Shown here in pieces: positions 15,843 to 28,483 of a stretch of 64,000 nt of DNA. Below the pieces are notes generated by a model. It searched no databases. It had not been told where the DNA came from and was given only the letters and a program-made list of their open reading frames with translations. Within the stretch, counting starts at the first letter, position 1. Every line of letters starts with the position of its first letter. Position numbers and translations under genes: made by a program. The stretch is from Thermodesulfobacteriota bacterium (GTDB taxonomy: Bacteria; Desulfobacterota; Syntrophorhabdia; Syntrophorhabdales; JANXAF01), in assembly GCA_025062045.1 (NCBI GenBank), contig JANXAF010000003.1, forward strand, positions 41,444 to 105,443. Direction: 5' to 3'.

Positions 15843-15845
15843 ATT

Positions 15846-15866
15846 CGGGGGCCTTTTCGGCCCCTG
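15846..15866 (+). promoter_or_regulatory. GC-rich intercistronic stem-loop with no T-tract
   Basis: The sequence is cgggggcc-ttttc-ggcccctg: an 8-bp stem (one G-U) and a 5-nt loop between the two synthase-like genes. No U-run follows, so it is not a classic intrinsic terminator. Confidence 0.5.
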
Positions 15867-15888
15867 TCGTCGATTGGGGGGATCTATT

Positions 15889-16950
15889 ATGGGAAAATTC
15901 ACCAAAGGATTCCATGAGATAAGAAAGGACATGTTCCAAATTTGCGGTGGAAAGGCTTCGCATCTAGGGGAGCTAACAAGTATAGGACTTAATGTTCCGT
16001 ATGGTTTTTGCGTCACCGCGGACGCTTTTTTCCATCATCTTAGAAAAAACAACCTCGAAAAGAGAGTATTTGAGATCGCAAAAACGATAAACTACGACGA
16101 CATATCAGATCTTGATAGAAAAACGGAAGAGATCCGTTCGCTAATTGAAAACGCGGATATGCCAGATGAAATTGCGGATGAAATAGTGGAAGGGTACGAA
16201 AGTTTAGGAAAGGACGAACCTTATGTGGCTGTGCGTTCGTCGGTTGCCATAAAGGATAGTGACATATCCTCATTTCCGGGACTCATGGACACGTACCACT
16301 ACGTAAAAGGAACTCAAGCAATTATGGACTACGTAAAGAAATGTTGGGCTTCGGTTTTTACGTCCAGGGCAACGGCAGCGCGGTATAGAAAAGGGATAGA
16401 ACACGAAAGGGCAATAATCGCGCCTATTATCCAGAGGATGGTAAATGCAAAGTGCGCCGGTGTTATGTTTACATTGAACCCCGTAGATGGAGACGTATCC
16501 AAAATCGTGATAGAAGGTGCTTGGGGAATAGGGGAAGGGGTCGTATCCGGAAATGTGACACCCGACAGATTCGTGATAGACAAAATATTGCTCGAAATTA
16601 ACGAGCGGAAAGTCTCCTTAAAAACGGTGAAGTACGTTTACGACCCGGAACTAAAACGACCATCATACAAGGAAGTACCAGAGGAAGATAAAAGTAGATG
16701 CTGTTTAGAGGAAAAGGAGATAATGGAACTTGTAAGACTCGCAAAACTTATAGAAAACCACTACAAGACTCCCATGGATATAGAGTGGGCTGTGGATAAA
16801 GACTTTGAATTTCCGAAGAACGTTTTTATACTCCAGGCCCGGGCCGAGTCTGTCTGGAGTAAGAAAAAAGCAGAGCCTGTAATAGGTAAAAAGAGTAGTT
16901 ATGAACTCTTGATGGAAAGGGCCATGAAAACTATAAAGGTTGGACAATAA
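15889..16950 (+). CDS. PPDK_N / ATP-grasp nucleotide-binding protein (phenylphosphate synthase beta-like)
   Basis: Has GGKASHLGEL...GLNVPYGFCVT and AVRSSVAIKDSDISSFPGLMDTY (PEP synthase N-domain pattern). I prefer the ATG at 15889 (GGGGGGA SD 6 nt upstream) over the track's TTG at 15874. Confidence 0.75.
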   Translation: MGKFTKGFHEIRKDMFQICGGKASHLGELTSIGLNVPYGFCVTADAFFHHLRKNNLEKRVFEIAKTINYDDISDLDRKTEEIRSLIENADMPDEIADEIVEGYESLGKDEPYVAVRSSVAIKDSDISSFPGLMDTYHYVKGTQAIMDYVKKCWASVFTSRATAARYRKGIEHERAIIAPIIQRMVNAKCAGVMFTLNPVDGDVSKIVIEGAWGIGEGVVSGNVTPDRFVIDKILLEINERKVSLKTVKYVYDPELKRPSYKEVPEEDKSRCCLEEKEIMELVRLAKLIENHYKTPMDIEWAVDKDFEFPKNVFILQARAESVWSKKKAEPVIGKKSSYELLMERAMKTIKVGQ

Positions 16951-17039: not shown

Positions 17040-18374
17040 ATGGTCATGGCAGAAAGAGATAGTATCTATTGGAATCCGATTCTAGAGACTATGCCTAAAG
17101 AGAAACTAAGGGAATTGCAAATAAAGAAGTTCAAAAGGATCTTTGAGTGGGCTTACAACAATTCTCCTTTTTACAGAAGGCTCTACAAAGAGGCAGGCAT
17201 TGAACCAGAAGACATAAAGTCATACGAAGACATAAAAAAAGTCCCAAAGATAGACAAAGGGATGTTGAGGGATGTTCAAACGAGAGAGCCATTCCCATAT
17301 GGAGATATACTTGCCGTTCCTTTAAGAGAAGTTGTTGTTTTCAGGCAGACGAGCGGAACGACAGGAACCCCTGTTTACCAAGCCGACACTTGGCAGGACT
17401 GGGAATGGTGGTCGGAATGCTGGGCATACATACTTTACGCACAGGGCTACAGAGAAGAAGATCGAGTCTTTCTTCCCTTTGGTTACAACGTGTTCGTTGC
17501 TTTCTGGGCGGCCCATTATGCTGCAGAAAAGATAGGATGTGAAGTTGTCCCGGGTGGGGTACTCGACACGGAAGCAAGGATCTTAAAAATGCAGGAGCTT
17601 AAATGTACGGCCTTTGCCGCAACCCCCACATACGTACTGGGTATGGCAGATACAGCGAGGAAAATGGGTATAGATCCAAGATCTTTGGGAATAAAGAGAA
17701 TTACATGTGCGGGTGAGCCGGGTGCGAGCATTCCGGCAACTAAAAAGAGAATTGAAGAGGCTTGGGGAGCAAAAGTTTATGATCATGCGGGTGCAACAGA
17801 GATCGGTGCGTGGGGATACATGTGCACTGAGCAGACGGGATTACACGTAAATGAAGCCTTCTTCCTTGTGGAGATTGAGGATGTGGAGACGGGTGAGATA
17901 GTAGAGGAGCCGATGAAGAACGGAAAGATGATCGTGACGGCTTTCGACAGATACGCAAAGCCCTGTATCCGTTTTGATTCGAAGGATATCATAAGGTGGG
18001 CAAACTACGATTGTCCCTGTGGCAGAACTTTTAGACTAATAGATGGCGGAGTAATAGGAAGGGCAGACGACATAACAAAGGTAAAAGGTGTACTACTTGC
18101 CCCAACTGCCATCGAAGAGGTAGTCCGGAGTTTTAAGGAGCTGAGTAACGAGTATGAGGTTATAGTCTCTAAAAAGGGCGACATAGATGACATACTCTTA
18201 AAAATTGAAATATTGCCCGAATACGAAAGTAAAAGAGAGGATATTCTTTCAAGACTTAAAGACCAGCTAAGGCTAAAGACGAATCTCGGTTACAGAATTG
18301 AAGTACACCCATTCGGTTCCCTTCCTAGGTACGATGTAAAGGCAAAGAGATTCAAAGACTTAAGGAAGCAGTAA
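17040..18374 (+). CDS. PaaK / coenzyme-F390-synthetase family aryl-acid CoA ligase
   Basis: 444 aa. Has RQTSGTTGTP and ITCAGEPG, and the PaaK-type short architecture. The true start may be the ATG at 17046. Confidence 0.75.
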   Translation: MVMAERDSIYWNPILETMPKEKLRELQIKKFKRIFEWAYNNSPFYRRLYKEAGIEPEDIKSYEDIKKVPKIDKGMLRDVQTREPFPYGDILAVPLREVVVFRQTSGTTGTPVYQADTWQDWEWWSECWAYILYAQGYREEDRVFLPFGYNVFVAFWAAHYAAEKIGCEVVPGGVLDTEARILKMQELKCTAFAATPTYVLGMADTARKMGIDPRSLGIKRITCAGEPGASIPATKKRIEEAWGAKVYDHAGATEIGAWGYMCTEQTGLHVNEAFFLVEIEDVETGEIVEEPMKNGKMIVTAFDRYAKPCIRFDSKDIIRWANYDCPCGRTFRLIDGGVIGRADDITKVKGVLLAPTAIEEVVRSFKELSNEYEVIVSKKGDIDDILLKIEILPEYESKREDILSRLKDQLRLKTNLGYRIEVHPFGSLPRYDVKAKRFKDLRKQ

Positions 18375-18386
18375 GGGAGGACTGTT

Positions 18387-18569
18387 ATGGAGCATTACGA
18401 CATTTTCGCAATGGATAAAAAGATACAGGAGATAAAGGAAGCGGTCAAAGAACTCGAGAGGCTTGGGGAAGGAATAGAGGCTGTAAAAAGGAACTTAGTG
18501 CGACTTAAAGCGACTCTAAAGATGCTTGAACTAAATATCTCTGATGTAAAGCTTGTCTATCCTTCTTGA
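18387..18569 (+). CDS. 60-aa predicted helical/coiled-coil protein, unknown function
   Basis: Strong GGGAGG SD 7 nt upstream. Heptad-like K/E/L composition. 12 nt downstream of the ligase. Its 3' end overlaps the convergent Mo-enzyme gene by 13 nt. Confidence 0.5.
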   Translation: MEHYDIFAMDKKIQEIKEAVKELERLGEGIEAVKRNLVRLKATLKMLELNISDVKLVYPS

Positions 18570-20647
18570 GGATCAAGCCGTACTATCCTACAAGGTATCG
18601 CCCTAAGGTTGGGTGTCCCGAACTCCCTTCCAAACGGGGGGCTATCGTCTGTTAGGATATTTATATTGGACCTATCCCATCCGAATAAAGTCTCTTCCTT
18701 TTCCTCAGGAAAGTACCATCCGTAATCGCATAAAACTGTATTTTCGTGAATGTCCGGATTTATCTTTACCTTTTGGAGTATCCTTCCTTGCCGGGTTTCG
18801 ATGTATACGTAAGAACCCTCTTTTAAACCGAAAGATTCTGCAACGTCTGGATGGATCTCCACGCAGGGCTCAGGATACTTTTTTCTCAAAGCTTCTATAT
18901 TTTTTCCTCCAGAGTGTCTAAAATATGTGCGCTTAAGACTCGTAAGGATTAGAGGATATTGAGGATCTTTATCTTCACAAAGAACCTTTTCCAAATCGAC
19001 GGAAGGTAAAGGGGGAAAACCCCATTCTTCCAATCTTTTTGAATATATCTCCACCTTGCCAGAAGGCGTTGGGAAACCGTTTTGTATGTGATGGTTAGGT
19101 TTTGGCTCACCCTTTACGTATCCGATCTCGCATAAATCGTCAAACCTTATCCCTAAAGGAGAAAGGATGTAGTCGAGACACTCTTTTTCGGTTTTCCAGA
19201 AAAGATCTCCGAATCCGCAGGGAATGGAGAGTGCTCTTAAAATCTCATAATCCGATTTTGCTAGACCCACGTTTACCACTTTTTTCTGAGCCGAAAGGAC
19301 AGGGAGCGAATACGGTGGAAGGGAGAGGCTATCGAATTCAAAGAAAGTGGCCGAGGGAAGGAAATAGTGCGCTAAAGAGGCAGTTGGGGTCATAAAATGA
19401 TCAGAAACGACAAGAAGTTCAACCTTTCTTAGAGCTTCGTACACTTTTTTGGCATTCGGATAAGTAAGGAGAAAGTTTCCACCTTGAATGAATAAACCCT
19501 TTATTGGATAGGGGTCCTCTTTAAGGATGGCTTCAATTACAAGCTGAGGCAGCGCATAATAAAGATTGGGTAGCATGTAGCCTTTTCCACCGATCCTCCT
19601 TTTCCTCTCCTCCAAAGAGAGAAGGTTATGTAAGGTTAGTTCGGAAGAACCCCTTTCGATTATCGATGGAGCCTTGTAGTATATGTCCCCACCTGGAATA
19701 TTGAGATTTCCGGAAATAGCCCTCAAGATACATATCGCTCTTGCCGTCTGGAAGTTCTGAGTTGTGTGATCTATTCCGTTTCCCCATTGAATAACTGAAG
19801 GTTTAAGTCCTGCGTAGGCTTTTGCGATCTTTAAGATGAGATCCTTCGGTACGTCAGTTAATTTCTCCACCACTTCGGGTTTGAATGGATCCAACGTGTT
19901 TTTCAATTCTCCGAAGCCTATAGTATACTTCTCAACGAAATCTCTATCGTAAATTTCCTCTTTGACAATGACATAGATGAGGCCTAAGGCCAAAAGAAGA
20001 TCACTCCCAGGCCTTATCTTCACCCATAGATCCGCAATTTTTGCAATCTCAGTCTTTATGGGATCGATAACTATGAGAAAGGCTCCGCTTTTTTTTGCAT
20101 CTTTTATTCTCTCGTAAACATGATGAAGCGTCTCAGAGACGTTATTGGCCCATACTACAATGCACTTGGGTGGGTACTCGAGATCACATATCGCGTAAAA
20201 ACCGTAAGTCAATGTGGATGCCATCCTGCGCGGAATAAAGCAAACGTGTGCCATCGATGTGATATTTGGGCTTCCGAAAGCGTTGGCAAAACGGGAAAGG
20301 TAATCGTCGTGGAGACCCTTTGCAGACCCTCTCATGAAAACTATAGATTCCGGCCCGTATTGAGCCTTTATCTCCAATAACTTTTCAGCAATTTCTCCTA
20401 TTGCCTCATCCCAGGATATTTTTTTCCAAAGCTTCCCTTCTTTACGTAAGGGTATAGTGATCCTTTCTGGATGGTAAAGATAATCTATGGAGGTTAGCCC
20501 CTTTATGCAGAGCTTTCCTCGATTAAGAGGGTGATCAGGATCCCCCCTTACTTCGACGACCTTTGAATCCGAAACTTTAACGATGATTCCGCACCCTATC
20601 TGGCAAAGACCACAGGTGCTTTTAATCTCTCTTTGAGCGTATCTCAT
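18557..20647 (-). CDS. cytoplasmic molybdopterin (Mo/W-bisPGD, DMSO-reductase superfamily) enzyme with an N-terminal [4Fe-4S] site
   Basis: 696 aa. Has the N-terminal C-x2-C-x3-C...C motif (CGLCQIGCG...KLCIKG). No twin-arginine signal. A candidate metal-ligand Cys lies in SMAHVCFIP. FMTPTASLAHYFLP, TPSGKVEIYS and PNLRA are collinear with acetylene-hydratase-type members as I recall them. Confidence 0.8.
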   Translation of the reverse strand: MRYAQREIKSTCGLCQIGCGIIVKVSDSKVVEVRGDPDHPLNRGKLCIKGLTSIDYLYHPERITIPLRKEGKLWKKISWDEAIGEIAEKLLEIKAQYGPESIVFMRGSAKGLHDDYLSRFANAFGSPNITSMAHVCFIPRRMASTLTYGFYAICDLEYPPKCIVVWANNVSETLHHVYERIKDAKKSGAFLIVIDPIKTEIAKIADLWVKIRPGSDLLLALGLIYVIVKEEIYDRDFVEKYTIGFGELKNTLDPFKPEVVEKLTDVPKDLILKIAKAYAGLKPSVIQWGNGIDHTTQNFQTARAICILRAISGNLNIPGGDIYYKAPSIIERGSSELTLHNLLSLEERKRRIGGKGYMLPNLYYALPQLVIEAILKEDPYPIKGLFIQGGNFLLTYPNAKKVYEALRKVELLVVSDHFMTPTASLAHYFLPSATFFEFDSLSLPPYSLPVLSAQKKVVNVGLAKSDYEILRALSIPCGFGDLFWKTEKECLDYILSPLGIRFDDLCEIGYVKGEPKPNHHIQNGFPTPSGKVEIYSKRLEEWGFPPLPSVDLEKVLCEDKDPQYPLILTSLKRTYFRHSGGKNIEALRKKYPEPCVEIHPDVAESFGLKEGSYVYIETRQGRILQKVKINPDIHENTVLCDYGWYFPEEKEETLFGWDRSNINILTDDSPPFGREFGTPNLRAIPCRIVRLDPQEG

Positions 20648-21633
20648 AGTTTAAAAAGAGTTTTTGCATTTTCGGAGAAGATCTTTTGGCCTTCCTCAGT
20701 AGAGAGATTTAGAGATTTGAGACTCTCTATTGCCCTTTCCACACCTCCTATTGGATGAGGATAATCGGTCCCAAAGAGCACATGGTCGATCCCCATGTAT
20801 TCTATCGCACACCTCATCGCGGGCAAGTGGAAGGAGACGGTGTCGATGTAAACGTTCGTTTTGTAATATATAGAAGGTTTTTTCATTGCTGAAAATTTAA
20901 AATCCTTTCCGTAGGTTTCATATGCGTCATCCACTCTTCTCACCAGATAAGGAAATACCCCTCCAAGGTGAGGATGGATGACCTTTAGGTTTTGAAACCT
21001 GTCGAAAACACCGAATAGTATGAGTCCTGCAACTGCAATAGTCGTATCCATGATGAATCCAAAAAGGGGGATTGGCATCATGACCTTTTTTAGAACTGTT
21101 GTAGTAATAGGAGGTCCTGGATGAACAAGGATTGGAAGATCAAAATTCGATGCGGCCTCGTATATCGGATAAAATTCCTGGAAGTATATCGGTTTACCAG
21201 CGACATTTGAGAACATAATAACTCCTTTTGCGTCAAGATCCCTCTTTGCCCGTTCTAGTTCCTTTACTGATGCTAAAACGTCTTGAATGGGAAGAGTCGC
21301 CAAAAAATGAAGTCTCCCTTTGCTCTTTTGACATATGGAAGCAAAATAGTCATTGAGCTTTTTTGCCCAAAAAACACCATCCCTTTTAGGCAGTAACTCT
21401 ACACTCGGTGTCGTAAGACTCATCAGATTGACATCTATTCCTTTTTCATCCATATCCTTGATCCTTTCTTCCACATCCAAATGTCCCTTTTTTTCGATTG
21501 TTGCAAGCCTCGTTCCCTTAAAGTAGATGAGAATCTTCTCTTCCTTTTTTCTGATCGTTATCGTTTTAGAGTGGCTTTCCAGATAGTCAAGCCATTCTTT
21601 CGGGTATAAATGGTTATGGACATCTATTAACAA
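20644..21633 (-). CDS. amidohydrolase_2 (ACMSD/gamma-resorcylate-decarboxylase family) protein with the canonical HxH motif
   Basis: 329 aa. Has IDVHNHLYP, ILVHPG, IHPHLGG and LFGTDYPH. There is a 4-nt ATGA overlap with the Mo-enzyme gene. Confidence 0.8.
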   Translation of the reverse strand: MLIDVHNHLYPKEWLDYLESHSKTITIRKKEEKILIYFKGTRLATIEKKGHLDVEERIKDMDEKGIDVNLMSLTTPSVELLPKRDGVFWAKKLNDYFASICQKSKGRLHFLATLPIQDVLASVKELERAKRDLDAKGVIMFSNVAGKPIYFQEFYPIYEAASNFDLPILVHPGPPITTTVLKKVMMPIPLFGFIMDTTIAVAGLILFGVFDRFQNLKVIHPHLGGVFPYLVRRVDDAYETYGKDFKFSAMKKPSIYYKTNVYIDTVSFHLPAMRCAIEYMGIDHVLFGTDYPHPIGGVERAIESLKSLNLSTEEGQKIFSENAKTLFKL

Positions 21634-21642
21634 ATCACCCTC

Positions 21643-21846
21643 CTAGTAAAGCATCTCCACAGGGAAGAAAATCTTTATGGCACCCATCGGACACTCAAGT
21701 CTACAGGACCCACAGTGCCAGCATTCATCGGCATACTTGACAATTGGCATATTTTTTTCGGAATCGAAATGTATAACATCCAAAGGACATATCTTATCGC
21801 ACATCCCACATCCAGAACATCTATCCATATCTATATTCGGGGGCAT
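21643..21846 (-). CDS. 2x[4Fe-4S] mini-ferredoxin, AprB-N-terminal-domain-like (copy A)
   Basis: 67 aa. Has CSGCGMCDKICP and CWHCGSCRLECP. Overall pattern is MPP.I....C.GC...C....K......CW.C..C...CP.GAI. Confidence 0.85.
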   Translation of the reverse strand: MPPNIDMDRCSGCGMCDKICPLDVIHFDSEKNMPIVKYADECWHCGSCRLECPMGAIKIFFPVEMLY

Positions 21847-21861
21847 GTTGTCACCTAATCC

Positions 21862-23547
21862 TTAAGGAATTTTGTCATAGCTTAACTTTTTAAACTCTTT
21901 TACAACTTTCCCATCTTTCTGAAAGATCACTATTTCCCCCTCAAACTCTTCCTTTGTCTCCGGATAGTCAGAACGGAAATGGAAGATTCCGAACCTAGTT
22001 TCTTTCCTTTCCAACGAAGCATGGCACATGATCGTACCGATATCTATCAGTTGGTTTGTTTCATGAACTCTCATAAGCTCGTGAAAATCTTTTGCCTTGA
22101 GAGCTTGCGCCTCCTCTTTTAAGCTTTGAAGCTTATCTATTGCCAGATTTAAACTTTTTTCATTTCTTACGGGTCCTGCGTATTCCCACATCACTCTCCT
22201 TATTACATTTTCCACTGTTTTATGATCTAGATTTCCAGTGACCCATAGCGGTCTATAGATTGCTTCTTTTAGTCTCTGAATCTCTTTTTTATCGACTCTT
22301 ATTGGGTGAGAGTAGTTTTTGGCATATTCAGCCGCCACTTTGCCGGAAAGATATCCTCCGGTTGTGCACAAATGCACGCATCGCATCTGGTCAGTACAGT
22401 CACCACAGGCAAAGAGGCCTTCTATCGAACTTGATGTCCTCTCGTCTATCATTATTCCGCTTCCACAAACTTCAGAAGGACCTGCCTGCATACCTTCCGA
22501 ATACATAACCTCCAAAGGTTCTTTAGAGAGATCCACCCCCTTTTGTTCCAAAAAATCAGGAAGGGTATCTTTGTCGTAACCGAGTGTCCGTTTTAGATGG
22601 TTTAGATCAGCTTCCGAGAGGTGGGTACAGTCGATGTAAATCGGTCCGTTTCCCATTTGGATCTCTTTCATGACCGCATAAACAAGCATACTTCTTGGAG
22701 CTTTGTTCCCCATAGGATGGTATTTTGCCATAAATTCCTCGCCGTAAGCGTTGATCAACCTTCCACCCATTCCCATAAGAGCGTTCAATCCGGCCGCACT
22801 GAACCCTTTCGGCACGACCGTAATCCTCATGTACTCCATGTTTGCGAGCTTGGCACCGACTTTATAAGCCATAACTTGTGCTGCTCCAGTATTTTGTGGA
22901 CACTGCCAAGTATTAAAAGGGAGCCCTGTTGGGTTATGGAAGAGCCTTGTTGTGCATCCTGTGGCTAAAATAGTCGCCTTCGCTTTAACTATATAAAAAT
23001 CCCCCGTTCTTATATTAAAGCCAACTGCGCCTATAACTCGTTCCCCATCATAGAGGAGATCGGTCATCATACATCTCTCTAAGGCAAAGACCCCAAGTCT
23101 TCTTGCTTCTTTTGCTAAAGCCGGTTTGAGATTCTTACCGTTAAAGTTTATGAAATAGGGTCCTGGCTGTCCTAAGGACTGGGTCCTAAGATACTTACCG
23201 TCACTCTGTTTAAGGGTGCATCCTATCTTTTCCATCCTTTCTAGTGCCGCCTCAAGTTCCTTGCAGAAGACTGCATCCTGTACCTTCAAATCTACTGCTC
23301 CTCGGGCGATCTTCGCCACATAACTTAGGTACGCTTCTCTCGTATCCCACGGTCCTGTATTGAGATAGGCCATGAAATGGTCAACCCCTCCGGCGGTTGC
23401 CCCGCATCTTTCGAGTGTCCCTTTATCTGCCACTATAACTTTTACGTTTTTCTCTAGTGCGCCAAGCGCCGCATTATTACCGGCAAGCCCACCGCCTACT
23501 ATGAGAACGTCCGTTTCGAATTCGTATTCTCTTATGTTTCCGATCAT
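21862..23547 (-). CDS. AprA-like FAD flavoprotein of the succinate dehydrogenase/fumarate reductase/APS reductase superfamily (copy A)
   Basis: 561 aa. Has an N-terminal DVLIVGGGLAGNNAA dinucleotide fold. FYIVKAKATILATG, NAYGEEF, GPIYID and DFHELMRVHE...RKETRFGIFHFRSDYPE are collinear with A. fulgidus AprA as I recall it. Confidence 0.75.
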   Translation of the reverse strand: MIGNIREYEFETDVLIVGGGLAGNNAALGALEKNVKVIVADKGTLERCGATAGGVDHFMAYLNTGPWDTREAYLSYVAKIARGAVDLKVQDAVFCKELEAALERMEKIGCTLKQSDGKYLRTQSLGQPGPYFINFNGKNLKPALAKEARRLGVFALERCMMTDLLYDGERVIGAVGFNIRTGDFYIVKAKATILATGCTTRLFHNPTGLPFNTWQCPQNTGAAQVMAYKVGAKLANMEYMRITVVPKGFSAAGLNALMGMGGRLINAYGEEFMAKYHPMGNKAPRSMLVYAVMKEIQMGNGPIYIDCTHLSEADLNHLKRTLGYDKDTLPDFLEQKGVDLSKEPLEVMYSEGMQAGPSEVCGSGIMIDERTSSSIEGLFACGDCTDQMRCVHLCTTGGYLSGKVAAEYAKNYSHPIRVDKKEIQRLKEAIYRPLWVTGNLDHKTVENVIRRVMWEYAGPVRNEKSLNLAIDKLQSLKEEAQALKAKDFHELMRVHETNQLIDIGTIMCHASLERKETRFGIFHFRSDYPETKEEFEGEIVIFQKDGKVVKEFKKLSYDKIP

Positions 23548-23549
23548 GG

Positions 23550-24575
23550 CTAATTTAGTCTCAGTAATCTTTTTGCATTTCCCTCAAATATAGCAGTCTT
23601 GTCTTCCTCCGTAAGAATGTCGAGAGTCTCGATTATATGGATAGTTTCTCTTATGTAAGGAGAGTCCTCCTCGTGTATGTTTGGACGTGAGTCGAAGGGC
23701 ATGTCGGTTCCAAATAGTACATGATCGACCCCAAAAAAGAGGATTCCACACCTTGTGGATTCTTTTGCGCCGAAAAGAGCTGTGTCCGCATAGAACATTT
23801 TAAAGTAATCGATCGGTCTTTTCTTCATAGATTTTATGAGGGATTCGTAGTCTTCACCGGAAGTCCTAGAACCGAGCATGTCCCATGCTGGTCCAACCCT
23901 TCCAGCCTGGTAAGGTGCTATCCCGCCCAGGTGATGGGTTATTATCTTTATGGAGGGGTACTTCTCGAAGATTCTGGAGAAGACTAAGTGTGCCATGCAC
24001 ACACTCGTCTCATACGGCCATCCGAATATGAACCATATCTCGTAATGGCTTTTCGTTTCCGCCTTATAATCGGGAAAGTCAGAACCCCTCGTGGGGTGTA
24101 TCCATATGGGTCTTTCGATTTCTGCCATGTATTTGAATAGGGGTTCAAATTCTGGCCTATCCAATGGTTTCCCAAGGACATTGGTAAAGAGCTGAATCCC
24201 GAAAGCTCCAAGCTCATCTATTGCACGTTGAGCCTCTTTTAGTGAAGCGTCTATGTCATTCAATGGAAGGGAGGCGACAAACCCCAAAAACCTATCGGGG
24301 TATCTATCTACGATCTCTTTCATTGAGTCATTTGCGATCCTTGCAAGCTCGTATGTGACATTCGGTGGGCCGAATGTTTCGATTGGTGGAGCCGCAAGGG
24401 TCAAAACCTGAACGTAATTTTCAAACTTATCCATGATTCTAAATCTGTCTTCGAGCTCGTAGAGGGCATAAATATTTCGCACCCTTTTGTTCATATCTTT
24501 CGCATGGGGCGCGAGCTTTTGGACCTTATCCAGGTATTTTTTTGGCAAGATGTGGCAGAACATATCGATCTTCAT
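23550..24575 (-). CDS. amidohydrolase_2 (ACMSD-family) protein, atypical F-x-H N-terminal motif (copy A)
   Basis: 341 aa. Has KIDMFCHILP (ACMSD has KIDIHSHILP), PIWIHP, ITHHLGG and LFGTDMPFD. Confidence 0.8.
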   Translation of the reverse strand: MKIDMFCHILPKKYLDKVQKLAPHAKDMNKRVRNIYALYELEDRFRIMDKFENYVQVLTLAAPPIETFGPPNVTYELARIANDSMKEIVDRYPDRFLGFVASLPLNDIDASLKEAQRAIDELGAFGIQLFTNVLGKPLDRPEFEPLFKYMAEIERPIWIHPTRGSDFPDYKAETKSHYEIWFIFGWPYETSVCMAHLVFSRIFEKYPSIKIITHHLGGIAPYQAGRVGPAWDMLGSRTSGEDYESLIKSMKKRPIDYFKMFYADTALFGAKESTRCGILFFGVDHVLFGTDMPFDSRPNIHEEDSPYIRETIHIIETLDILTEEDKTAIFEGNAKRLLRLN

Positions 24576-26452
24576 CTCTTACTCCTCTTTATCCATTCGT
24601 AGATTATAAAGGGGGCCGATATTGAAAGGCCTACTATATCGTAAATTACTCCCGGCACCATAACTGTGAGACCACTTAGGAATAGAATCGCCCTGACCCA
24701 TAATTTTAGTTCGCTAAAAAGATAGCCCTCAACTCCGATAGCGAGAAGTACCACACCTATGACTCCAAAAATTATGGACTCGACTATTTCGATAGGTGAC
24801 CCGATGAGGATTAGACTCGGTTTAAATATGAATATGAAGGGCACAATGTAAGCAACGATACCTAGCTTCATCGCCTGGTATGCGGTTTTGAGCATATCAT
24901 CCTCTGCTATAGCCGCTGCCGCGTACGCTGCAAGGCAAACAGGTGGGGTGAGAAAAGAAAGAACTGCGAAATAAAAGACGAAAAAATGGGCAAGAATCGG
25001 TTGTATTCCAAGCTCAATAAGGGCGGGGGCAGCAAGCGTTACCATAAGGAGATAAGAACCGGTTGCGGGCATTCCCATACCGAGAATCACTGCTCCAAAT
25101 GCCGTAAGGAGAAGTAGAGGTACGATCTTCTTCCCGGCAAGTTCAACTAGAAGAGCTGAGAACGAAAATGCAAGTCCCGTAATGGAAAGAATCCCTATAA
25201 GAATTCCAGCTCCTGCACATGTTATACAGATCTCCAGGAAAAATCTTCCACATTCCGAGAATATGGGGAAGATACTTTTTGCTCTCACTCTTTTTAGCAC
25301 GAGCCACCCTAGAAGAAATGCGAATGCTGTAGTATAGATACCCGCGTATTCAGCCTCCATCTGCTTAAAAAAGAGAAGATATATGAGAAGTAGAAATGGG
25401 ATGGATATAAGCCAATTCTTTTTCAAAGTTTGGTATAGGGATGGGATTTTACTTTTCTCCATCCCTTTAAGTCCCAACTTTGCGGCCTCCAGATCTACTT
25501 GAACGAAAACGGCAAAATAGTAAAGTAAAGCGGGTATTATGGCGGCGATAGCGACCTTTGCGTATGGAATTCCTAGAAAGGTGGCCATGATAAATGCCGA
25601 CGCTCCCATAATGGGAGGCATAATCTGGCCGCCTGTTGAAGAGACGGCCTCTACAGCCCCTGCGTAGTAAGGCTTGTAGCCGGCTTTCTTCATAAGAGGT
25701 ATGGTGAATGTGCCTGTTGTTACAACGTTGGCAACCGCGCTTCCAGAAATCATGCCGAAAAGGGAAGATGCGAAAACAGCTACCTTCGCCTGACCTCCTC
25801 TAAATCTTCCTAAAATCGATGTTGCCACATCGTTAAAAAACTCACCCAAGCCGACCTTTGATATGGTCTGTCCGAATAGAATGAATACGAGAACGACTGT
25901 GGATGATACGATAACAGGAACCCCAATTATCCCTTGAGGATCAACGTAGAGGTAGTTGGCCAAATTCTTCCAAGAGACACTCTTTAGGCCTAGTGGAAGG
26001 TGGGAAAGAAAAAGGGCGACCAGTATGAAAAAGACGATAATTACTAAAAAAGGGTATCCCGTAACCCTTCTTATTGCCTCAAGGGTAAGTAGGATGGCAA
26101 GTATGCCTAAAAAGATCCTGTGGGGTTTTAAGAGCCCGACTTCTATCATTATTTCGTCGTAGAAGATGCCCAGATAAAAGAAGCAGAAAAGAGAAACAGA
26201 TGCAAAGACGAAATCGTAAAAAGGGACTTTATCTGAGGTTATCCTTCTTGAGGGACGGATGAATATAAAAGTTGAAAAGAGTGTAAGTCCGTAGATCAAA
26301 GCTACCCATTGGTGGATGTGGAATGACTTAGAGAAGTATGCAGGGAGGTTTAGAATAGCTGTTATCGCAAGGAGGGGGATAAGGAATAGGCCTAAGTTTC
26401 CGACTATCTTCGCTATCCCCCCCGGATCCCTAAAACGGGATACCCTTTCCAT
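24572..26452 (-). CDS. TRAP transporter fused permease (TAXI-associated DctQM-type)
   Basis: 626 aa and polytopic. Has GGQAKVAVFASSLFGMISGSAVANVVTTGTFTIPLMKKAGY. It is a clear paralog of 42451..44301. Confidence 0.85.
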   Translation of the reverse strand: MERVSRFRDPGGIAKIVGNLGLFLIPLLAITAILNLPAYFSKSFHIHQWVALIYGLTLFSTFIFIRPSRRITSDKVPFYDFVFASVSLFCFFYLGIFYDEIMIEVGLLKPHRIFLGILAILLTLEAIRRVTGYPFLVIIVFFILVALFLSHLPLGLKSVSWKNLANYLYVDPQGIIGVPVIVSSTVVLVFILFGQTISKVGLGEFFNDVATSILGRFRGGQAKVAVFASSLFGMISGSAVANVVTTGTFTIPLMKKAGYKPYYAGAVEAVSSTGGQIMPPIMGASAFIMATFLGIPYAKVAIAAIIPALLYYFAVFVQVDLEAAKLGLKGMEKSKIPSLYQTLKKNWLISIPFLLLIYLLFFKQMEAEYAGIYTTAFAFLLGWLVLKRVRAKSIFPIFSECGRFFLEICITCAGAGILIGILSITGLAFSFSALLVELAGKKIVPLLLLTAFGAVILGMGMPATGSYLLMVTLAAPALIELGIQPILAHFFVFYFAVLSFLTPPVCLAAYAAAAIAEDDMLKTAYQAMKLGIVAYIVPFIFIFKPSLILIGSPIEIVESIIFGVIGVVLLAIGVEGYLFSELKLWVRAILFLSGLTVMVPGVIYDIVGLSISAPFIIYEWIKRSKR

Positions 26453-26455
26453 CCT

Positions 26456-27469
26456 TTACCTTTTTAGCTGAGCGATAAGCCTGGACTGGATCTCTTCCAT
26501 CTCTTTTGTCCAGAGTCCTTTTTCTTTGAAGTATTTGACTACGCCAGGATGGTAAGGGATTACTATATCCTTAGAGACGAAAACGTCTTGATCCCAATCT
26601 TTTAAGAGTTTATGGACAAGCTCAAACTCTTTATAGTTCTCATAAAGAGCCTTGACTATTGTATAAGCGACACTGTCAGGGAGCTCAGCCGTTGTTGCGA
26701 GATAGATGTCATAGACCCATAGGTACTGTTCCCCGCTTATGCCGACCGTACCAGGTCCTTCCTTAACCTTTGCCATGTAACCTGGAAAATACTTTTTCAT
26801 CCTCTCAACGAGATGGGGTGAGGGATCGAGTGGCAAGTATCTGGCACCCTTTTTAGCGTTGAGTTCCTCGATCACGGGAGAACCGAGCGTTATTGTGCCT
26901 GAAGCATCGGCCCTACCCTCGATTACCGCTTTTACCCCATCGGGTGGGGAATGGACAGGGACCATTATCACGTCTTTTTCCTCGAGCCCTCCGTTGGCTA
27001 AAAGGGCTAGGGTCTGGAGTGTTATGGAAGTCCTAGGGTATTTCCCTGCCACCTTCTTCCCTTTAAGATCGGCTATCTTTCTTACAGGAGAGTCCTTAGG
27101 CACAACGATTCCGATCTTATTCGGGACAGTGGGCGTGAGGATTCTCAAATTCGGAAAGCCCTTTCCCTGAGAAAGTTTCTCCCATTCGTACTTGCCTAAA
27201 ACTGCCATCTCCGCGTCCCACATGTTCATGACTCCTAGTTGTATCTCACCCCTTGCCATATAAGGCATCCACGCCTCCGGCCCCGACATCGGTTTAACTA
27301 TCGCCTTAAGGTTAGTCTTTTCATTTATGACTTTTGCTGCGGCAACACCGATTGTGTGGAAGAACGCACCTATTGGATTCGTTCCAATGTTTATCTGATC
27401 GGTCGAAAAGGAAAGATTGGCGAAAAATAGTATGAAAGAGGCTAAAAAAAGAAGAGTTGTCACTTTCAT
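26456..27469 (-). CDS. TAXI-family TRAP solute-binding protein with signal peptide
   Basis: Has the N-terminal signal MKVTTLLFLASFILFFANLSFS and a periplasmic-binding fold. I prefer the ATG at 27469 (GGGGG SD) over the track's GTG at 27484. Confidence 0.75.
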   Translation of the reverse strand: MKVTTLLFLASFILFFANLSFSTDQINIGTNPIGAFFHTIGVAAAKVINEKTNLKAIVKPMSGPEAWMPYMARGEIQLGVMNMWDAEMAVLGKYEWEKLSQGKGFPNLRILTPTVPNKIGIVVPKDSPVRKIADLKGKKVAGKYPRTSITLQTLALLANGGLEEKDVIMVPVHSPPDGVKAVIEGRADASGTITLGSPVIEELNAKKGARYLPLDPSPHLVERMKKYFPGYMAKVKEGPGTVGISGEQYLWVYDIYLATTAELPDSVAYTIVKALYENYKEFELVHKLLKDWDQDVFVSKDIVIPYHPGVVKYFKEKGLWTKEMEEIQSRLIAQLKR

Positions 27470-27480
27470 GTTTACCCCCT

Positions 27481-28230
27481 TCACGTTCTTTTTTGTGAAA
27501 AATAGTCGCTTTTTGCAAGCGCTTTCTCCATAACATCACCCACGTATCTTAGGTGATCTTCCAGTAACCTTTTCACCTCCTCTTTTTTTCCGTTTTTTAA
27601 GGCAAGAACTATCTTTTCGTGATCTGCAACGTTCTTTTTAGGAAAAGAAAAGGGAAGTTTCACCTGACTTCTAAAATCCGAAACGACCGTCATTATGAGT
27701 TCTATTACTAGGATGAAGACCGAATTCTTGGAGATCCTTGCCAGGTGTCTGTGAAACTCGATATTTTCGTGGAAAGGCTGAATTTTGTTCTTTATCTTTT
27801 CCTTCGACACTCGAACGTTCTCTTCAAGCGTTCGAATGTCTTCGGCGGTAACATTTTCTAAAACATGCTTTATCATAATCTTTTCGATCTCAATCCGTGC
27901 AACCGTGAGATCGTGGATATCTATCTTTCTCATAAGAAATGCTTCAAGAAAGAGGTTAGAAAATGTGTTCATTATTGTGTCGGCAACAAATGCTCCCTTA
28001 CCTAAACCTTTCTCAACTTTTATATAGCCTGAAAGCTCAAGTAGTCTCATGGCCTCTCTTATCGTCTGTCTTCCAACGTTAAATTTCCTTGCAAGCTCAG
28101 ATTCTGACGGAAGCCTATCGCCAGGTTTAAGCTCACCGGCTAAAATGAGCCTCTTAATCTCGTCTGAGACGACTTCAAACGTTCTCTTTCTAATGATGGG
28201 GGTAACGTTGAGAAGATGTGATACAGTCAT
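27481..28230 (-). CDS. GntR-family (FadR/FCD-type) transcriptional regulator
   Basis: 249 aa. Has the wHTH LPSESELARKFNVGRQTIREAMRLLELSGYI and an all-helical C-terminal domain. It is the first gene of the operon. Confidence 0.85.
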   Translation of the reverse strand: MTVSHLLNVTPIIRKRTFEVVSDEIKRLILAGELKPGDRLPSESELARKFNVGRQTIREAMRLLELSGYIKVEKGLGKGAFVADTIMNTFSNLFLEAFLMRKIDIHDLTVARIEIEKIMIKHVLENVTAEDIRTLEENVRVSKEKIKNKIQPFHENIEFHRHLARISKNSVFILVIELIMTVVSDFRSQVKLPFSFPKKNVADHEKIVLALKNGKKEEVKRLLEDHLRYVGDVMEKALAKSDYFSQKRT

Positions 28231-28240
28231 AATGTCATAC

Positions 28241-28269
28241 TTTTTACACCTTTATTTGGGGGATGTCAA
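28241..28269 (-). promoter_or_regulatory. putative sigma70-type promoter of the GntR-led operon, possibly giving a near-leaderless mRNA
   Basis: On the minus strand: TTGACA (28269-28264), a 17-nt spacer, TAAAAA (28246-28241), then 10 nt with no SD before the ATG at 28230. Confidence 0.35.
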
Positions 28270-28377
28270 GAAAAGCGGATAACAAGTAAAAAATCCTTAG
28301 GATTGCGTATAGAACAAATTTTGTTAGACCAATAGGTGTGGACAAGGAAAAAAAAATCGATTAAACTTATACCAAAT

Positions 28378-28453
28378 CGGGGCGTGGCGCAGCCTGGTCT
28401 AGCGCACTTGCTTGGGGTGCAAGAGGTCGCAGGTTCAAATCCCGTCGCCCCGA
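28378..28453 (+). tRNA. tRNA-Pro (anticodon GGG)
   Basis: Hand-folded cloverleaf. Acceptor CGGGGCG/CGCCCCG plus discriminator A. D-arm GCGC-AGCCTGGTCTA-GCGC. Anticodon arm CTTGC-TTGGGGT-GCAAG. T-loop TTCAAAT, with the T-stem carrying one G-U and one A-C mismatch. No encoded CCA. Confidence 0.85.
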
Positions 28454-28483
28454 TTGTTCATTTTACGGGCTTGAGGGGAAATC

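Follow-up and report, generated by a model that had tools for sequence, protein, structure and literature searches.

The closest described relatives of the redox pair considered here are adenosine 5'-phosphosulfate (APS) reductase, AprAB (1jnr/2fja), and the reductase for 3'-phosphoadenosine 5'-phosphosulfate (PAPS) of Methanothermococcus thermolithotrophicus (MtPAPSR, 8a8o), in which a flavin adenine dinucleotide (FAD) alpha subunit of about 560 amino acids (aa) is partnered by a ferredoxin beta subunit with two [4Fe-4S] clusters encoded immediately downstream. At the level of function, the nearest routes are nicotinate fermentation in Eubacterium barkeri and the gallate-pyrogallol-phloroglucinol route of Pelobacter acidigallici, in which the substrate is hydroxylated, reduced, and hydrolysed or decarboxylated by a molybdenum (Mo) enzyme, a low-potential iron-sulfur (Fe-S)/flavin reductase and an amidohydrolase-type ring hydrolase or decarboxylase, with no coenzyme A (CoA) ester. 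Here we analyse a block of eight consecutive minus-strand open reading frames (ORFs) at positions 18557-28230 of a 64,000-nucleotide (nt) stretch of DNA (the window; contig JANXAF010000003.1) whose host is an uncultured Desulfobacterota metagenome-assembled genome (MAG). The block encodes a flavoprotein-ferredoxin pair of AprAB architecture together with a regulator, a carboxylate importer, two amidohydrolases and a molybdenum/tungsten (Mo/W) enzyme.

The reading that we favour, with a probability of roughly 40%, is that the eight genes form a peripheral catabolic operon, under GntR control and independent of CoA, for an organic acid that is taken up from outside and is probably aromatic or unsaturated in some other way. 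On this reading it is a catabolic operon of known superfamilies whose combination, and whose active-site variant, are without a characterised counterpart. An earlier note on this DNA, made from the letters alone, knew of no characterised pathway with this enzyme set, and that holds in Pfam, NCBIfam, the PDB and the searched full-text literature, none of which assigns a pathway to the gene set; for resorcinol reductase there is apparently no sequence on record in the searched literature.

The eight-gene block is a conserved unit

Read in the direction of transcription, the ORF listing of the window gives a GntR/FCD regulator as the first gene (27481..28230; 249 aa), a TAXI binding protein with a GTG start and a signal-peptide N-terminus (26456..27484; 342 aa), a fused TRAP permease combining the small and large subunits (24572..26452; 626 aa), an Amidohydro_2 protein of the ACMSD family in which F6-C7-H8 replaces the H-x-H motif (AH_A; 23550..24575), an FAD flavoprotein of the fumarate-reductase superfamily that resembles AprA and PAPS reductase (21862..23547; 561 aa), a mini-ferredoxin with two [4Fe-4S] clusters (21643..21846; 67 aa), a canonical Amidohydro_2 protein resembling ACMSD, LigW and IDCase (AH_B; 20644..21633), which has a TTG start, and a Mo/W-bis(pyranopterin guanine dinucleotide) enzyme whose N-terminus carries a single [4Fe-4S] cluster (18557..20647; 696 aa). 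For the binding protein, the ATG at 27469 chosen by the earlier note is an in-frame alternative to the GTG. The intergenic distances from the regulator to the Mo/W gene are -4, +3, -4, +2, +15, +9 and -4 nt. The tightly packed minus-strand genes of the earlier note, with gaps of -4 to +15 nt, all lie where it had placed them, the operon-like architecture holds, and the domain label that it gave to each of the eight proteins is borne out by the Pfam and NCBIfam profiles.

The full order of the eight genes is also found in at least three other metagenome assemblies (L001, L083 and L084) at 68-87% identity, the flavoprotein of L001 being 77% identical to that of the window. Because the same order recurs in these assemblies, the block is a conserved unit and no chance run of ORFs. 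Promoter-like and terminator-like motifs within it are no more frequent than in shuffled sequence. The spacing, the kept gene order and the lack of an internal motif excess are compatible with a single transcript covering 18557-28230.

The flavoprotein departs from AprA in its active site

The flavoprotein matches the Pfam families FAD_binding_2 (6e-36) and Succ_DH_flav_C (2e-15). In a sequence search of the PDB its closest solved relatives were PAPS reductase 8a8o (E 3e-66) and AprA 1jnr (E 1e-47), with the structures of Sdh, Frd and NadB much more distant, and a Foldseek search with the AlphaFold model ranked 8a8o (28% identity) before 1jnr (27%) and FrdA (22%), fold searches merely reproducing the sequence-based ranking. 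The label "AprA-like" given in the earlier note is apt for the fold and the subunit architecture; it does not extend to the active site. In HMMER alignments to 1jnr_A, residues N74, R265 and H398 of A. fulgidus AprA, which we take to be the sulfite/sulfate contacts that support the FAD-N5-sulfite adduct, correspond to M59, V245 and Q354 of the window flavoprotein, and all three replacements are invariant across the flavoprotein clade. Also invariant are a GG[VI]DHF segment (D56-H57), which lies on the strand that bears N74 in AprA, and the residues R241, R285, Q354, D386 and R389. In the same alignments PAPS reductase 8a8o retains the Asn and the Arg at the first two of the AprA positions, and according to the authors of the M. 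thermolithotrophicus study its catalytic residues are retained (PMC10322725). The window flavoprotein has Met and Val at these two positions and is only 28% identical to 8a8o, so it does not qualify as a PAPS reductase of this kind, a type defined by kept AprA catalytic residues plus exchanges that make room for the 3'-phosphate. Since the catalytic and contact residues of AprA are not kept, sulfur chemistry is unlikely.

The curated models agree with the alignments. None of the NCBIfam equivalogs was reached, TIGR02061 (aprA) scoring 180 bits against a cut-off of 641.75, NF005331 (PRK06854-2) 285 against 557, and PRK08275, the best, 314 against 587. The mini-ferredoxin (Fer4, 5e-13) has all eight cluster cysteines (Cys 10/13/16/20 and 42/45/48/52), and the aprB model TIGR02060 covers it at profile positions 1-64 of 132 only, where it reaches 44 bits (cut-off 135.65). 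The protein thus resembles the ferredoxin domain of AprB but lacks the C-terminal tail that AprB wraps around AprA, and it falls short of being an AprB. As to gene context, no sat/ATP sulfurylase, qmoABC/aprM, APS kinase or sulfite reductase gene is present in the eight genes or in the flanks at 12.4-33.9 kb. The window pair thus shares with AprAB and MtPAPSR the large FAD subunit and the ferredoxin encoded directly after it, and differs from them in its 27-28% identity, the GG[VI]DHF segment, the 67-aa ferredoxin, the missing sat/qmo/APS-kinase context and its carboxylate-importer and ACMSD-family neighbours. An identity as AprA or as an APS/PAPS reductase was rejected on residues, model cut-offs and gene context, and the flavoprotein is probably not an APS reductase.

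Fumarate reductase and succinate dehydrogenase fare no better as templates. The fold is shared with the Frd/Sdh flavoproteins and L-aspartate oxidase, and two arginines that serve Sdh/Frd in dicarboxylate binding and protonation align, that of the 'APRD' motif with R285 and that of 'HGANR' with R389. The positions of the HPTG His, the Thr-Glu pair and the HY.MGG His are occupied by V245, N255 and G352, and that of the covalent-FAD His by G49 (C48-G49). Unlike Sdh, whose SdhB carries three clusters, the window protein has a two-cluster ferredoxin as partner, and the operon has no membrane anchor. An Frd/Sdh identity was accordingly rejected: the two arginines are all that remains, the His, Thr-Glu and covalent-FAD His positions are lost, and the score lies below the PRK08275 cut-off.

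The flavoprotein belongs to a large radiation. At E <= 1e-30 it has relatives in 501 clusters (50% identity) among 1.84 billion representatives, and many of these clusters read G-x-D-H instead of the AprA-type G-x-[ND]-A-[IL]-N. The full window signature is confined to the flavoprotein's own two nearest clusters, at 47% identity or more.

The DiSCo paper ties 'AprAB-like' paralogues with a tail-less AprB to sulfur-assimilation genes (PMC8477390); these are of the PAPS-reductase type and other than the window clade. In a study of Bilophila wadsworthia, two AprAB-like pairs were annotated as putative AprAB without an enzymatic test, and APS was found to stimulate growth (PMC11610557). One such AprAB-like pair, from B. 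wadsworthia ATCC 49260, is among the loci compared here (L054). In the JGI annotation, relatives with 52-76% identity are labelled 'adenylylsulfate reductase subunit A'.

One amidohydrolase is canonical and the other divergent

Both amidohydrolases match PF04909, AH_A with 115 bits (6e-33) and AH_B with 126.6 bits (2e-36) against a cut-off of 26.4, and neither reached any NCBIfam model. The F-x-H and HxH motifs that the earlier note had reported can be read directly, as D4-M-F6-C7-H8 in AH_A and D4-V-H6-N-H8 in AH_B. AH_B has the complete residue set of the ACMSD family (H6, H8, H171, H220/H222, D290 and R232/R233). The conserved Arg of this family is contributed by the neighbouring subunit. 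The PDB matches of AH_B are ACMSD (4e-37), 5-carboxyvanillate decarboxylase (9e-35), uracil-5-carboxylate decarboxylase (3e-33) and gamma-resorcylate decarboxylase (5e-31), so that its nearest solved relatives are all non-oxidative decarboxylases of enol-type or hydroxy-aromatic acids, and AH_B itself is most likely a non-oxidative decarboxylase.

AH_A lacks a complete H-x-H motif, the first metal-binding His being replaced by Phe; H160, H214, H215, D291 and R226 are invariant in its subfamily alignment. Its best PDB match is 3ij6, an uncharacterised hydrolase of L. acidophilus that reads Y-A-H at the same place, and in the Foldseek ranking 3ij6 is followed by gamma-resorcylate decarboxylase, ACMSD, LigY and LigJ. 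The subfamily, in which the first metal-binding His has been lost, is very abundant, with at least 7,986 proteins at E <= 1e-20 and hundreds at about 62% identity. Judged by these alignments, AH_B is a bona fide member of the ACMSD family and AH_A a divergent one. Compared with ACMSD, LigW, IDCase, gamma-resorcylate decarboxylase, LigJ and LigY, AH_B has the full H-x-H...H...H...D set with R233 (E 1e-31 to 1e-37), whereas AH_A shares the fold, is without the first metal-binding His and groups with 3ij6.

The Mo/W enzyme is cytoplasmic and accessory

The last protein of the block carries the Pfam domains Molybdop_Fe4S4, Molybdopterin and Molydop_binding together. It starts directly with the Fe-S motif (C12, C15, C19 and C47) and has no twin-arginine translocation (Tat) leader, in keeping with the cytoplasmic location assigned to it before. 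In the PDB it matches acetylene hydratase 2e7z best (8e-96), with FdhF and PsrA next. With acetylene hydratase it shares a length of about 700 aa, an N-terminal [4Fe-4S] cluster, a Cys metal ligand and the lack of a Tat signal; with PsrA it has the motif C-x-x-P-R-x-x-A-S in common. It differs from the PsrA/PhsA type in having no PsrB/PsrC partner. The Cys ligand aligns at C136, a probable metal ligand by prediction, and is followed by Phe137 instead of His.

Two specific identities were considered for this enzyme and rejected. Acetylene hydratase was excluded on account of its catalytic Asp, next to the second cluster Cys, which is Gln16 in the window protein, even though the Cys ligand aligns. 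Formate dehydrogenase (FdhH/FdhF) was excluded by the Cys136-Phe137 sequence in place of a Cys-His pair and by a TIGR01591 score of 359 bits against a cut-off of 666.

Orthologues of the Mo/W protein (43-68% identity) stand beside the flavoprotein in three different clades. Homologues with 51-54% identity are found elsewhere, one (L085) by DctPQM and an FAD oxidoreductase, another (L086) adjoining a GntR regulator, a 393-aa Fe-S protein and DctP, and a third (L087) adjoining a GlcD-like flavoprotein, a CCG Fe-S protein and an electron transfer flavoprotein; TRAP binding proteins, GntR regulators and flavin or Fe-S proteins are thus repeated neighbours. To judge from this company, the family looks like one of cytoplasmic organic-acid oxidoreductases that borrow the neighbouring redox proteins and are not specific to one pathway.

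Regulator and importer

The regulator has a GntR domain (PF00392, 2.7e-18) and an FCD domain (PF07729, 2e-18). Its best NCBIfam match is the NanR subfamily, with 133 bits against a cut-off of 260, and orthologues stand at the same position elsewhere with 77% (L001) and, in others, 43-50% identity. A putative promoter and operator can be read on the minus strand at 28226..28269, with a -35 element TTGACA (28269-28264), a 17-nt spacer and TAAAAA (28246-28241), followed by a direct repeat TATGAC-N2-TATGAC (28239-28226) that overlaps the start codon of the GntR gene. The TTTTCTTGACA and AAAGTATGACA(T/A)TATGAC blocks are kept in L001 and the sequence around them is not. NanR binds hexamer direct repeats. 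The TATGAC repeat is a possible autoregulatory operator, and the messenger RNA would then be nearly leaderless.

The TAXI-TRAP importer claimed by the earlier note is present, as both curated cut-offs are exceeded: the binding protein reaches 147.3 bits on TIGR02122 (cut-off 84.35) and the permease, a fused DctQM protein, 618.4 bits on TIGR02123 (TRAP_fused; cut-off 320.65), with a DctM match of 6e-99. In this, and in having an FCD regulator as the first gene, the locus resembles TAXI-TRAP systems with a GntR/FCD regulator. Between the binding protein and the TAXI proteins of solved structure the relationship is remote (E 1e-18), too distant for a ligand to be inferred.

Conservation across other genomes

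Relatives of the flavoprotein were collected at 113 loci, with one genome per species scanned, and 79 loci with 47-77% identity were kept. Neighbours were sought by BLASTP of the eight window proteins against the six-frame ORFs of these loci. A stricter set was limited to the 46 loci flanked by 4 kb or more on each side, counting neighbours on the same strand within 4 kb, and clades were defined by identity clustering of the flavoproteins.

The mini-ferredoxin was found in 71 of the 79 loci and, in the strict set, directly after the flavoprotein in 45 of 46. An Amidohydro_2 gene was present in 39/79 loci (17/46, about 37%, in the strict set). The commonest other neighbours were carboxylate importers, namely a fused TRAP permease (34/79), a TAXI protein (29/79; any TAXI/TRAP protein in 22/46 strict loci), TctABC (8-9/79), and also DASS and DctPQM systems, while the regulators were of the GntR or IclR type, GntR occurring in 16/79 loci (9/46 strict). 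The Mo/W gene stood beside the flavoprotein in 15/79 loci and within 4 kb in 4/46, and is an accessory component. No sat, qmo/aprM, APS-kinase, sulfite-reductase, dsr or sulfite-exporter gene was seen among the annotated recurrent neighbour clusters of the 79 loci, annotation covering part of the neighbours. Relatives with 48-50% identity were found in MAGs labelled Xanthobacteraceae, Burkholderiales and Rhodospirillaceae. The anaerobic character that the earlier note gave to the route is putative.

The window clade consists of L001-L010, whose MAGs are labelled Deltaproteobacteria, Thermodesulfobacteriota, Syntrophorhabdus/Syntrophorhabdaceae/Syntrophorhabdales and Syntrophaceae. Its full-length loci have, in 10/10 cases, a TAXI-TRAP system and an orthologue of AH_B (57-73% identity), and in 4/10 an orthologue of AH_A as well (62-86%). 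With the ferredoxin nearly universal and an amidohydrolase in all ten of these loci, the trio of flavoprotein, mini-ferredoxin and amidohydrolase that the earlier note had singled out is conserved outside the window genome. In a second clade the loci comprise TAXI-TRAP, an AH_B-like gene, the flavoprotein and ferredoxin, with or without the Mo/W gene. A third clade, with B. wadsworthia ATCC 49260, has the flavoprotein, ferredoxin and an AH_A-like gene, after which come genes for a class I/II aminotransferase and for D-2-hydroxyacid dehydrogenases, and many of its loci also have TctABC. The type of amidohydrolase tracks the flavoprotein clade. In L002, L003 and L005 both AH_A and AH_B accompany the flavoprotein, with the genes ordered differently, and this co-occurrence despite rearrangement suggests selection for co-localisation.

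Several loci show further variations. L002, L003 (5016-21654) and L005 contain two complete TAXI-TRAP sets on either side of the flavoprotein and ferredoxin, and the amidohydrolase that follows is of a different type for each set; further downstream are genes for a 381-aa Fe-S protein, DctP, a URO-D-like protein and a second Mo/W enzyme (about 32% identity) with a PsrB-like Fe-S gene. This layout suggests that two imported substrates could converge on one redox enzyme. A corrinoid O-demethylase was suspected near the flavoprotein of L005; the genes turned out to be DctQ/DctM and the URO-D-like protein. In two Syntrophorhabdales-type MAGs (L007, 4094-9446; L009, 4116-9439), genes resembling DsrMKOP precede the flavoprotein, encoding a NarI-like cytochrome b, an HdrD/DsrK-like Fe-S protein, a Tat-signal Fe-S protein and an NrfD-type membrane protein, and a pyridine-nucleotide-disulfide oxidoreductase is also present. 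Such neighbours hint that the flavoprotein may be wired to the quinone pool in some lineages. The MAG of L008 has a second, shorter flavoprotein copy (L012; 477 aa, 66% identical at 81% coverage), without amidohydrolase or TRAP neighbours and near two Mo/W-type genes and PsrB-like Fe-S genes, which may be a paralogue or a pseudogene.

A search of plasmids returned only members of a different sub-clade, carried by cultured Proteobacteria, at 27-31% identity, and these form a conserved unit of another kind. On pMLa of Mesorhizobium japonicum (L088) and a plasmid of Paraburkholderia sprentiae (L089), a flavoprotein (27-29%) is accompanied by a ferredoxin, a HEAT-repeat protein and a DUF971/gamma-butyrobetaine-hydroxylase-like protein, with a GntR regulator and an ABC transporter added in L089; PGAP names the flavoprotein of these plasmid units a fumarate reductase subunit. 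These members are uninformative on the window clade.

Two joined modules and a convergent ligase

In L080 and L081 an AH_A orthologue is part of a self-contained unit, made up of a regulator, a TAXI protein, a fused TRAP permease and AH_A itself, and the 10 kb around it hold no flavoprotein gene. The regulator of the L081 unit is of the GntR/FCD type, and the nearest upstream regulator in L080 is a sigma-54 activator. The window TAXI protein is 55% identical to that of L080, as against 22-36% to most TAXI proteins of flavoprotein loci. Conversely, the flavoprotein-ferredoxin-AH_B set, with or without the Mo/W gene, also occurs with a transporter of its own. The single eight-gene unit of the earlier note has the conserved order in its favour, and the block is better seen as two joined modules.

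Convergent to the block lies a gene for a PaaK-like aryl/acyl-CoA ligase (17040..18374, plus strand; 444 aa). Its TIGR02155 score of 257 bits against a cut-off of 646 marks it, on the model, as a PaaK-family paralogue. It is 73% identical to the ligase that lies 2.5 kb downstream of AH_A in L080, and copies with 70-91% identity are found within 10 kb of the flavoprotein in L001, L003, L021 and L024. No CoA-transferase or ligase gene lies within the operon core. The recurring association suggests that the PaaK-like ligase would be a downstream partner of the operon. In this respect the aromatic theme of the earlier note gains from the ligase copies near the modules elsewhere; it is still an inference, and the neighbours in Bilophila and some Desulfobacterales differ.

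The ligase gene is followed by a 60-aa ORF on the plus strand (18387..18569) with a strong GGGAGGA ribosome-binding site, which overlaps the 3' end of the Mo/W gene convergently by 13 nt. In both L080 and L081 a PaaK-like ligase and an ORF of about 60 aa stand a few genes downstream, and the window ORF is 50% identical over 46 residues to the 59-aa ORF after the L080 ligase; because of this similar ORF after an orthologous ligase, it is probably a real small gene.

The convergent genes at the downstream border of the block are this ORF, the ligase and a split PEP-utilising/PPDK_N pair (13989-16950, plus strand), consisting of a 617-aa protein and then a 358-aa PPDK_N ATP-grasp protein. The 617-aa protein has a domain of mobile PEP-utilisers and scores 816 bits on NCBIfam NF006153 ('hypothetical protein'; cut-off 578), and in its layout the pair is reminiscent of phenylphosphate synthase. 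L001 has the pair in synteny, along with a LysR regulator and a 194-aa protein that has a weak, sub-threshold match to acetate-uptake-transporter models. On the other side, the putative promoter of the block has a tRNA-Pro(GGG) gene (28377-28454, plus strand) immediately upstream of it, on the other strand, and beyond that gene are the housekeeping genes SurE, FBPase and MiaB-like. In L001, L083 and L084 the position of the tRNA-Pro is occupied by a divergent gene for a 550-aa AMP-dependent ligase, so the upstream boundary is rearranged in the window genome.

A proposed pathway and its alternatives

In the pathway that we propose, the FCD regulator would sense the acid and the TAXI-TRAP system would import it. 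The first module (regulator, TAXI protein, fused permease and AH_A) would combine uptake with a first non-oxidative step, in which AH_A may catalyse a decarboxylation, a hydration or a hydrolysis. The second module comprises the flavoprotein, the mini-ferredoxin, AH_B and the Mo/W enzyme. Its flavoprotein and ferredoxin would form an AprAB-like heterodimer that, instead of reducing APS or PAPS, would carry out a two-electron reduction or dehydrogenation of a C-C (or C-N) bond in an organic acid, and the enol or vinylogous beta-keto acid so formed would be decarboxylated by AH_B. For the Mo/W enzyme, which has no partner subunit of its own, this ferredoxin or flavoprotein could serve as electron partner, and a water-dependent oxidation or hydroxylation would thereby balance the flavin-dependent reduction. 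The product may be passed to the convergent PaaK-like ligase and thio-esterified there. We infer every chemical step, the sequence of the steps, which way the electrons flow and that the substrate is aromatic from what was observed directly, namely gene content, spacing, family memberships, the loss of AprA residues, conserved neighbourhoods and modularity. The likeness to the nicotinate and gallate routes is a formal analogy, with no homology at the level of families, as these routes use a Mo enzyme of the xanthine dehydrogenase type or with a Ser ligand, a short-chain dehydrogenase/reductase or another Fe-S flavoprotein, and hydrolases of the Amidohydro_1 or cyclase type.

A number of points weigh against this proposal. 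The reactions of the flavoprotein, AH_A and Mo/W clades are assigned by superfamily membership, these clades having no characterised members, and co-transcription of the block is putative, resting on gene spacing and order. The AlphaFold models are of moderate confidence (predicted local distance difference test, pLDDT, about 75; 74.7 for the flavoprotein), and their active-site loops are poorly predicted, with values below 50. Since the HPTG His, the Thr-Glu hinge and the HY.MGG His of Frd/Sdh are absent from the flavoprotein, classical enoate/fumarate chemistry is not guaranteed by its sequence. R285 and R389 are weak evidence for a carboxylate substrate, because R285 occurs superfamily-wide, the AprA type included, and the PAPS-reductase type has Lys at the position of R389. 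The proposed electron loop cannot be general, given how few loci have the Mo/W gene. Finally, TAXI proteins are only 22-36% identical across the loci, so the substrates probably differ between clades, and in Bilophila and some Desulfobacterales the aminotransferase and the 2-hydroxyacid dehydrogenases nearby speak for substrates that are aliphatic or derived from amino acids.

The last point leads to the alternative that survives best, although we consider it rather unlikely. The flavoprotein and ferredoxin could be a soluble, ferredoxin-linked reductase or dehydrogenase for a substituted fumarate- or succinate-type or 2-enoate acid, for example a C4-C6 di- or tricarboxylate with a methyl, hydroxy or carboxy substituent, or an enoate derived from an amino acid, with the amidohydrolases acting as a LigJ-like hydratase and a decarboxylase, and the whole serving as an electron sink or a 2-oxoacid route without an aromatic ring. 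Characterised TAXI and TTT systems typically carry C4-C6 di- and tricarboxylates and glutamate, which fits such substrates, as do the alignment of the Sdh/Frd-type arginines with R285 and R389 and the presence of the LigJ hydratase among the structural relatives of AH_A. The neighbours in clade-1 loci, those of Bilophila included, speak for it as well (class I/II aminotransferase, D-2-hydroxyacid dehydrogenases, a LarA-like racemase, TctABC and 2-oxoacid:ferredoxin oxidoreductase), and many loci consist of transporter, flavoprotein and ferredoxin alone. This alternative, however, has to account for the lost Frd/Sdh His and Thr-Glu residues, which also count against our own proposal, and it leaves the Mo/W enzyme without a role. 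The link to the PaaK-like ligase and the hosts of the window clade (Syntrophorhabdaceae/Syntrophorhabdales, Syntrophaceae and other Desulfobacterota) fit an aromatic acid better, and AH_B is nearer to aromatic and enol-acid decarboxylases than to LigJ.

The modularity of the block allows another explanation, which we regard as improbable, that two or three independent units (uptake with AH_A; flavoprotein, ferredoxin and AH_B; the Mo/W enzyme) merely abut and that there is no single eight-step pathway. TAXI-TRAP-AH_A stands alone in L080 and L081, flavoprotein-ferredoxin-AH_B-type units in clades 4 and 6 have their own TAXI-TRAP, L002 and L003 carry two transporter sets, and Mo/W homologues occur in unrelated contexts. 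Against independence, the modules are joined in the window by overlapping or near-abutting stop and start codons (TRAP/AH_A -4, AH_A/flavoprotein +2, AH_B/MoW -4), the eight genes have one regulator and one transporter between them, L001, L083 and L084 preserve the complete order, and AH_A, AH_B and the flavoprotein stay together, reordered, in L002, L003 and L005.

Least likely of all is a genuine APS/PAPS reductase, or a reductive cleavage of organosulfonates, with the Psr/Phs-like Mo/W enzyme handling the inorganic sulfur product, because the closest solved relatives, the JGI names, the treatment of the Bilophila pairs as AprAB with APS growth stimulation, the motif shared with PsrA and the Desulfobacterota host that speak for it are set against the clade-invariant replacement of all three AprA contacts, aprA and aprB scores at about a quarter to a third of their cut-offs, the lack of sat, qmo, dsr and sulfite exporter genes in the block and among the annotated recurrent neighbours, the relatives in MAGs labelled Xanthobacteraceae, Burkholderiales and Rhodospirillaceae, and the consistent partnership with carboxylate importers and ACMSD-family enzymes.

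Implications

We hold it possible, if somewhat doubtful, that the clade with the full signature (GG[VI]DHF/R241/Q354/R389) is a new functional class in the AprA/fumarate-reductase superfamily, devoted to reducing (or dehydrogenating) an unsaturated or hydroxy-aromatic carboxylate at low potential and without CoA or O2, and that with ACMSD-family enzymes, and sometimes a W/Mo electron loop, it makes up a widespread and unrecognised peripheral pathway. If so, the pathway would range over Desulfobacterota, Syntrophorhabdia, Chloroflexota, Archaeoglobi, Bilophila and many Proteobacteria. A route that needs no CoA, made up of a flavin/Fe-S enzyme, Mo/W and metal-dependent decarboxylases and placed before an aryl-CoA ligase, would open a new way into the anaerobic breakdown of organic acids, which may come from lignin or plants.

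The comparison of residues speaks against an APS reductase identity for the clade, and this bears on how sulfur cycling is inferred from aprA. The AprAB-like pairs of B. wadsworthia have served to propose APS respiration (PMC11610557), and if the class proposed here is real, 'aprA' genes in sulfur-cycle surveys and in studies of gut Bilophila would be genes of carbon metabolism. B. wadsworthia is culturable and carries the relative L054, and the binding protein and both amidohydrolases are soluble and can be screened. One solved function would seed annotation across many genomes in this uncharacterised radiation of 501 clusters.

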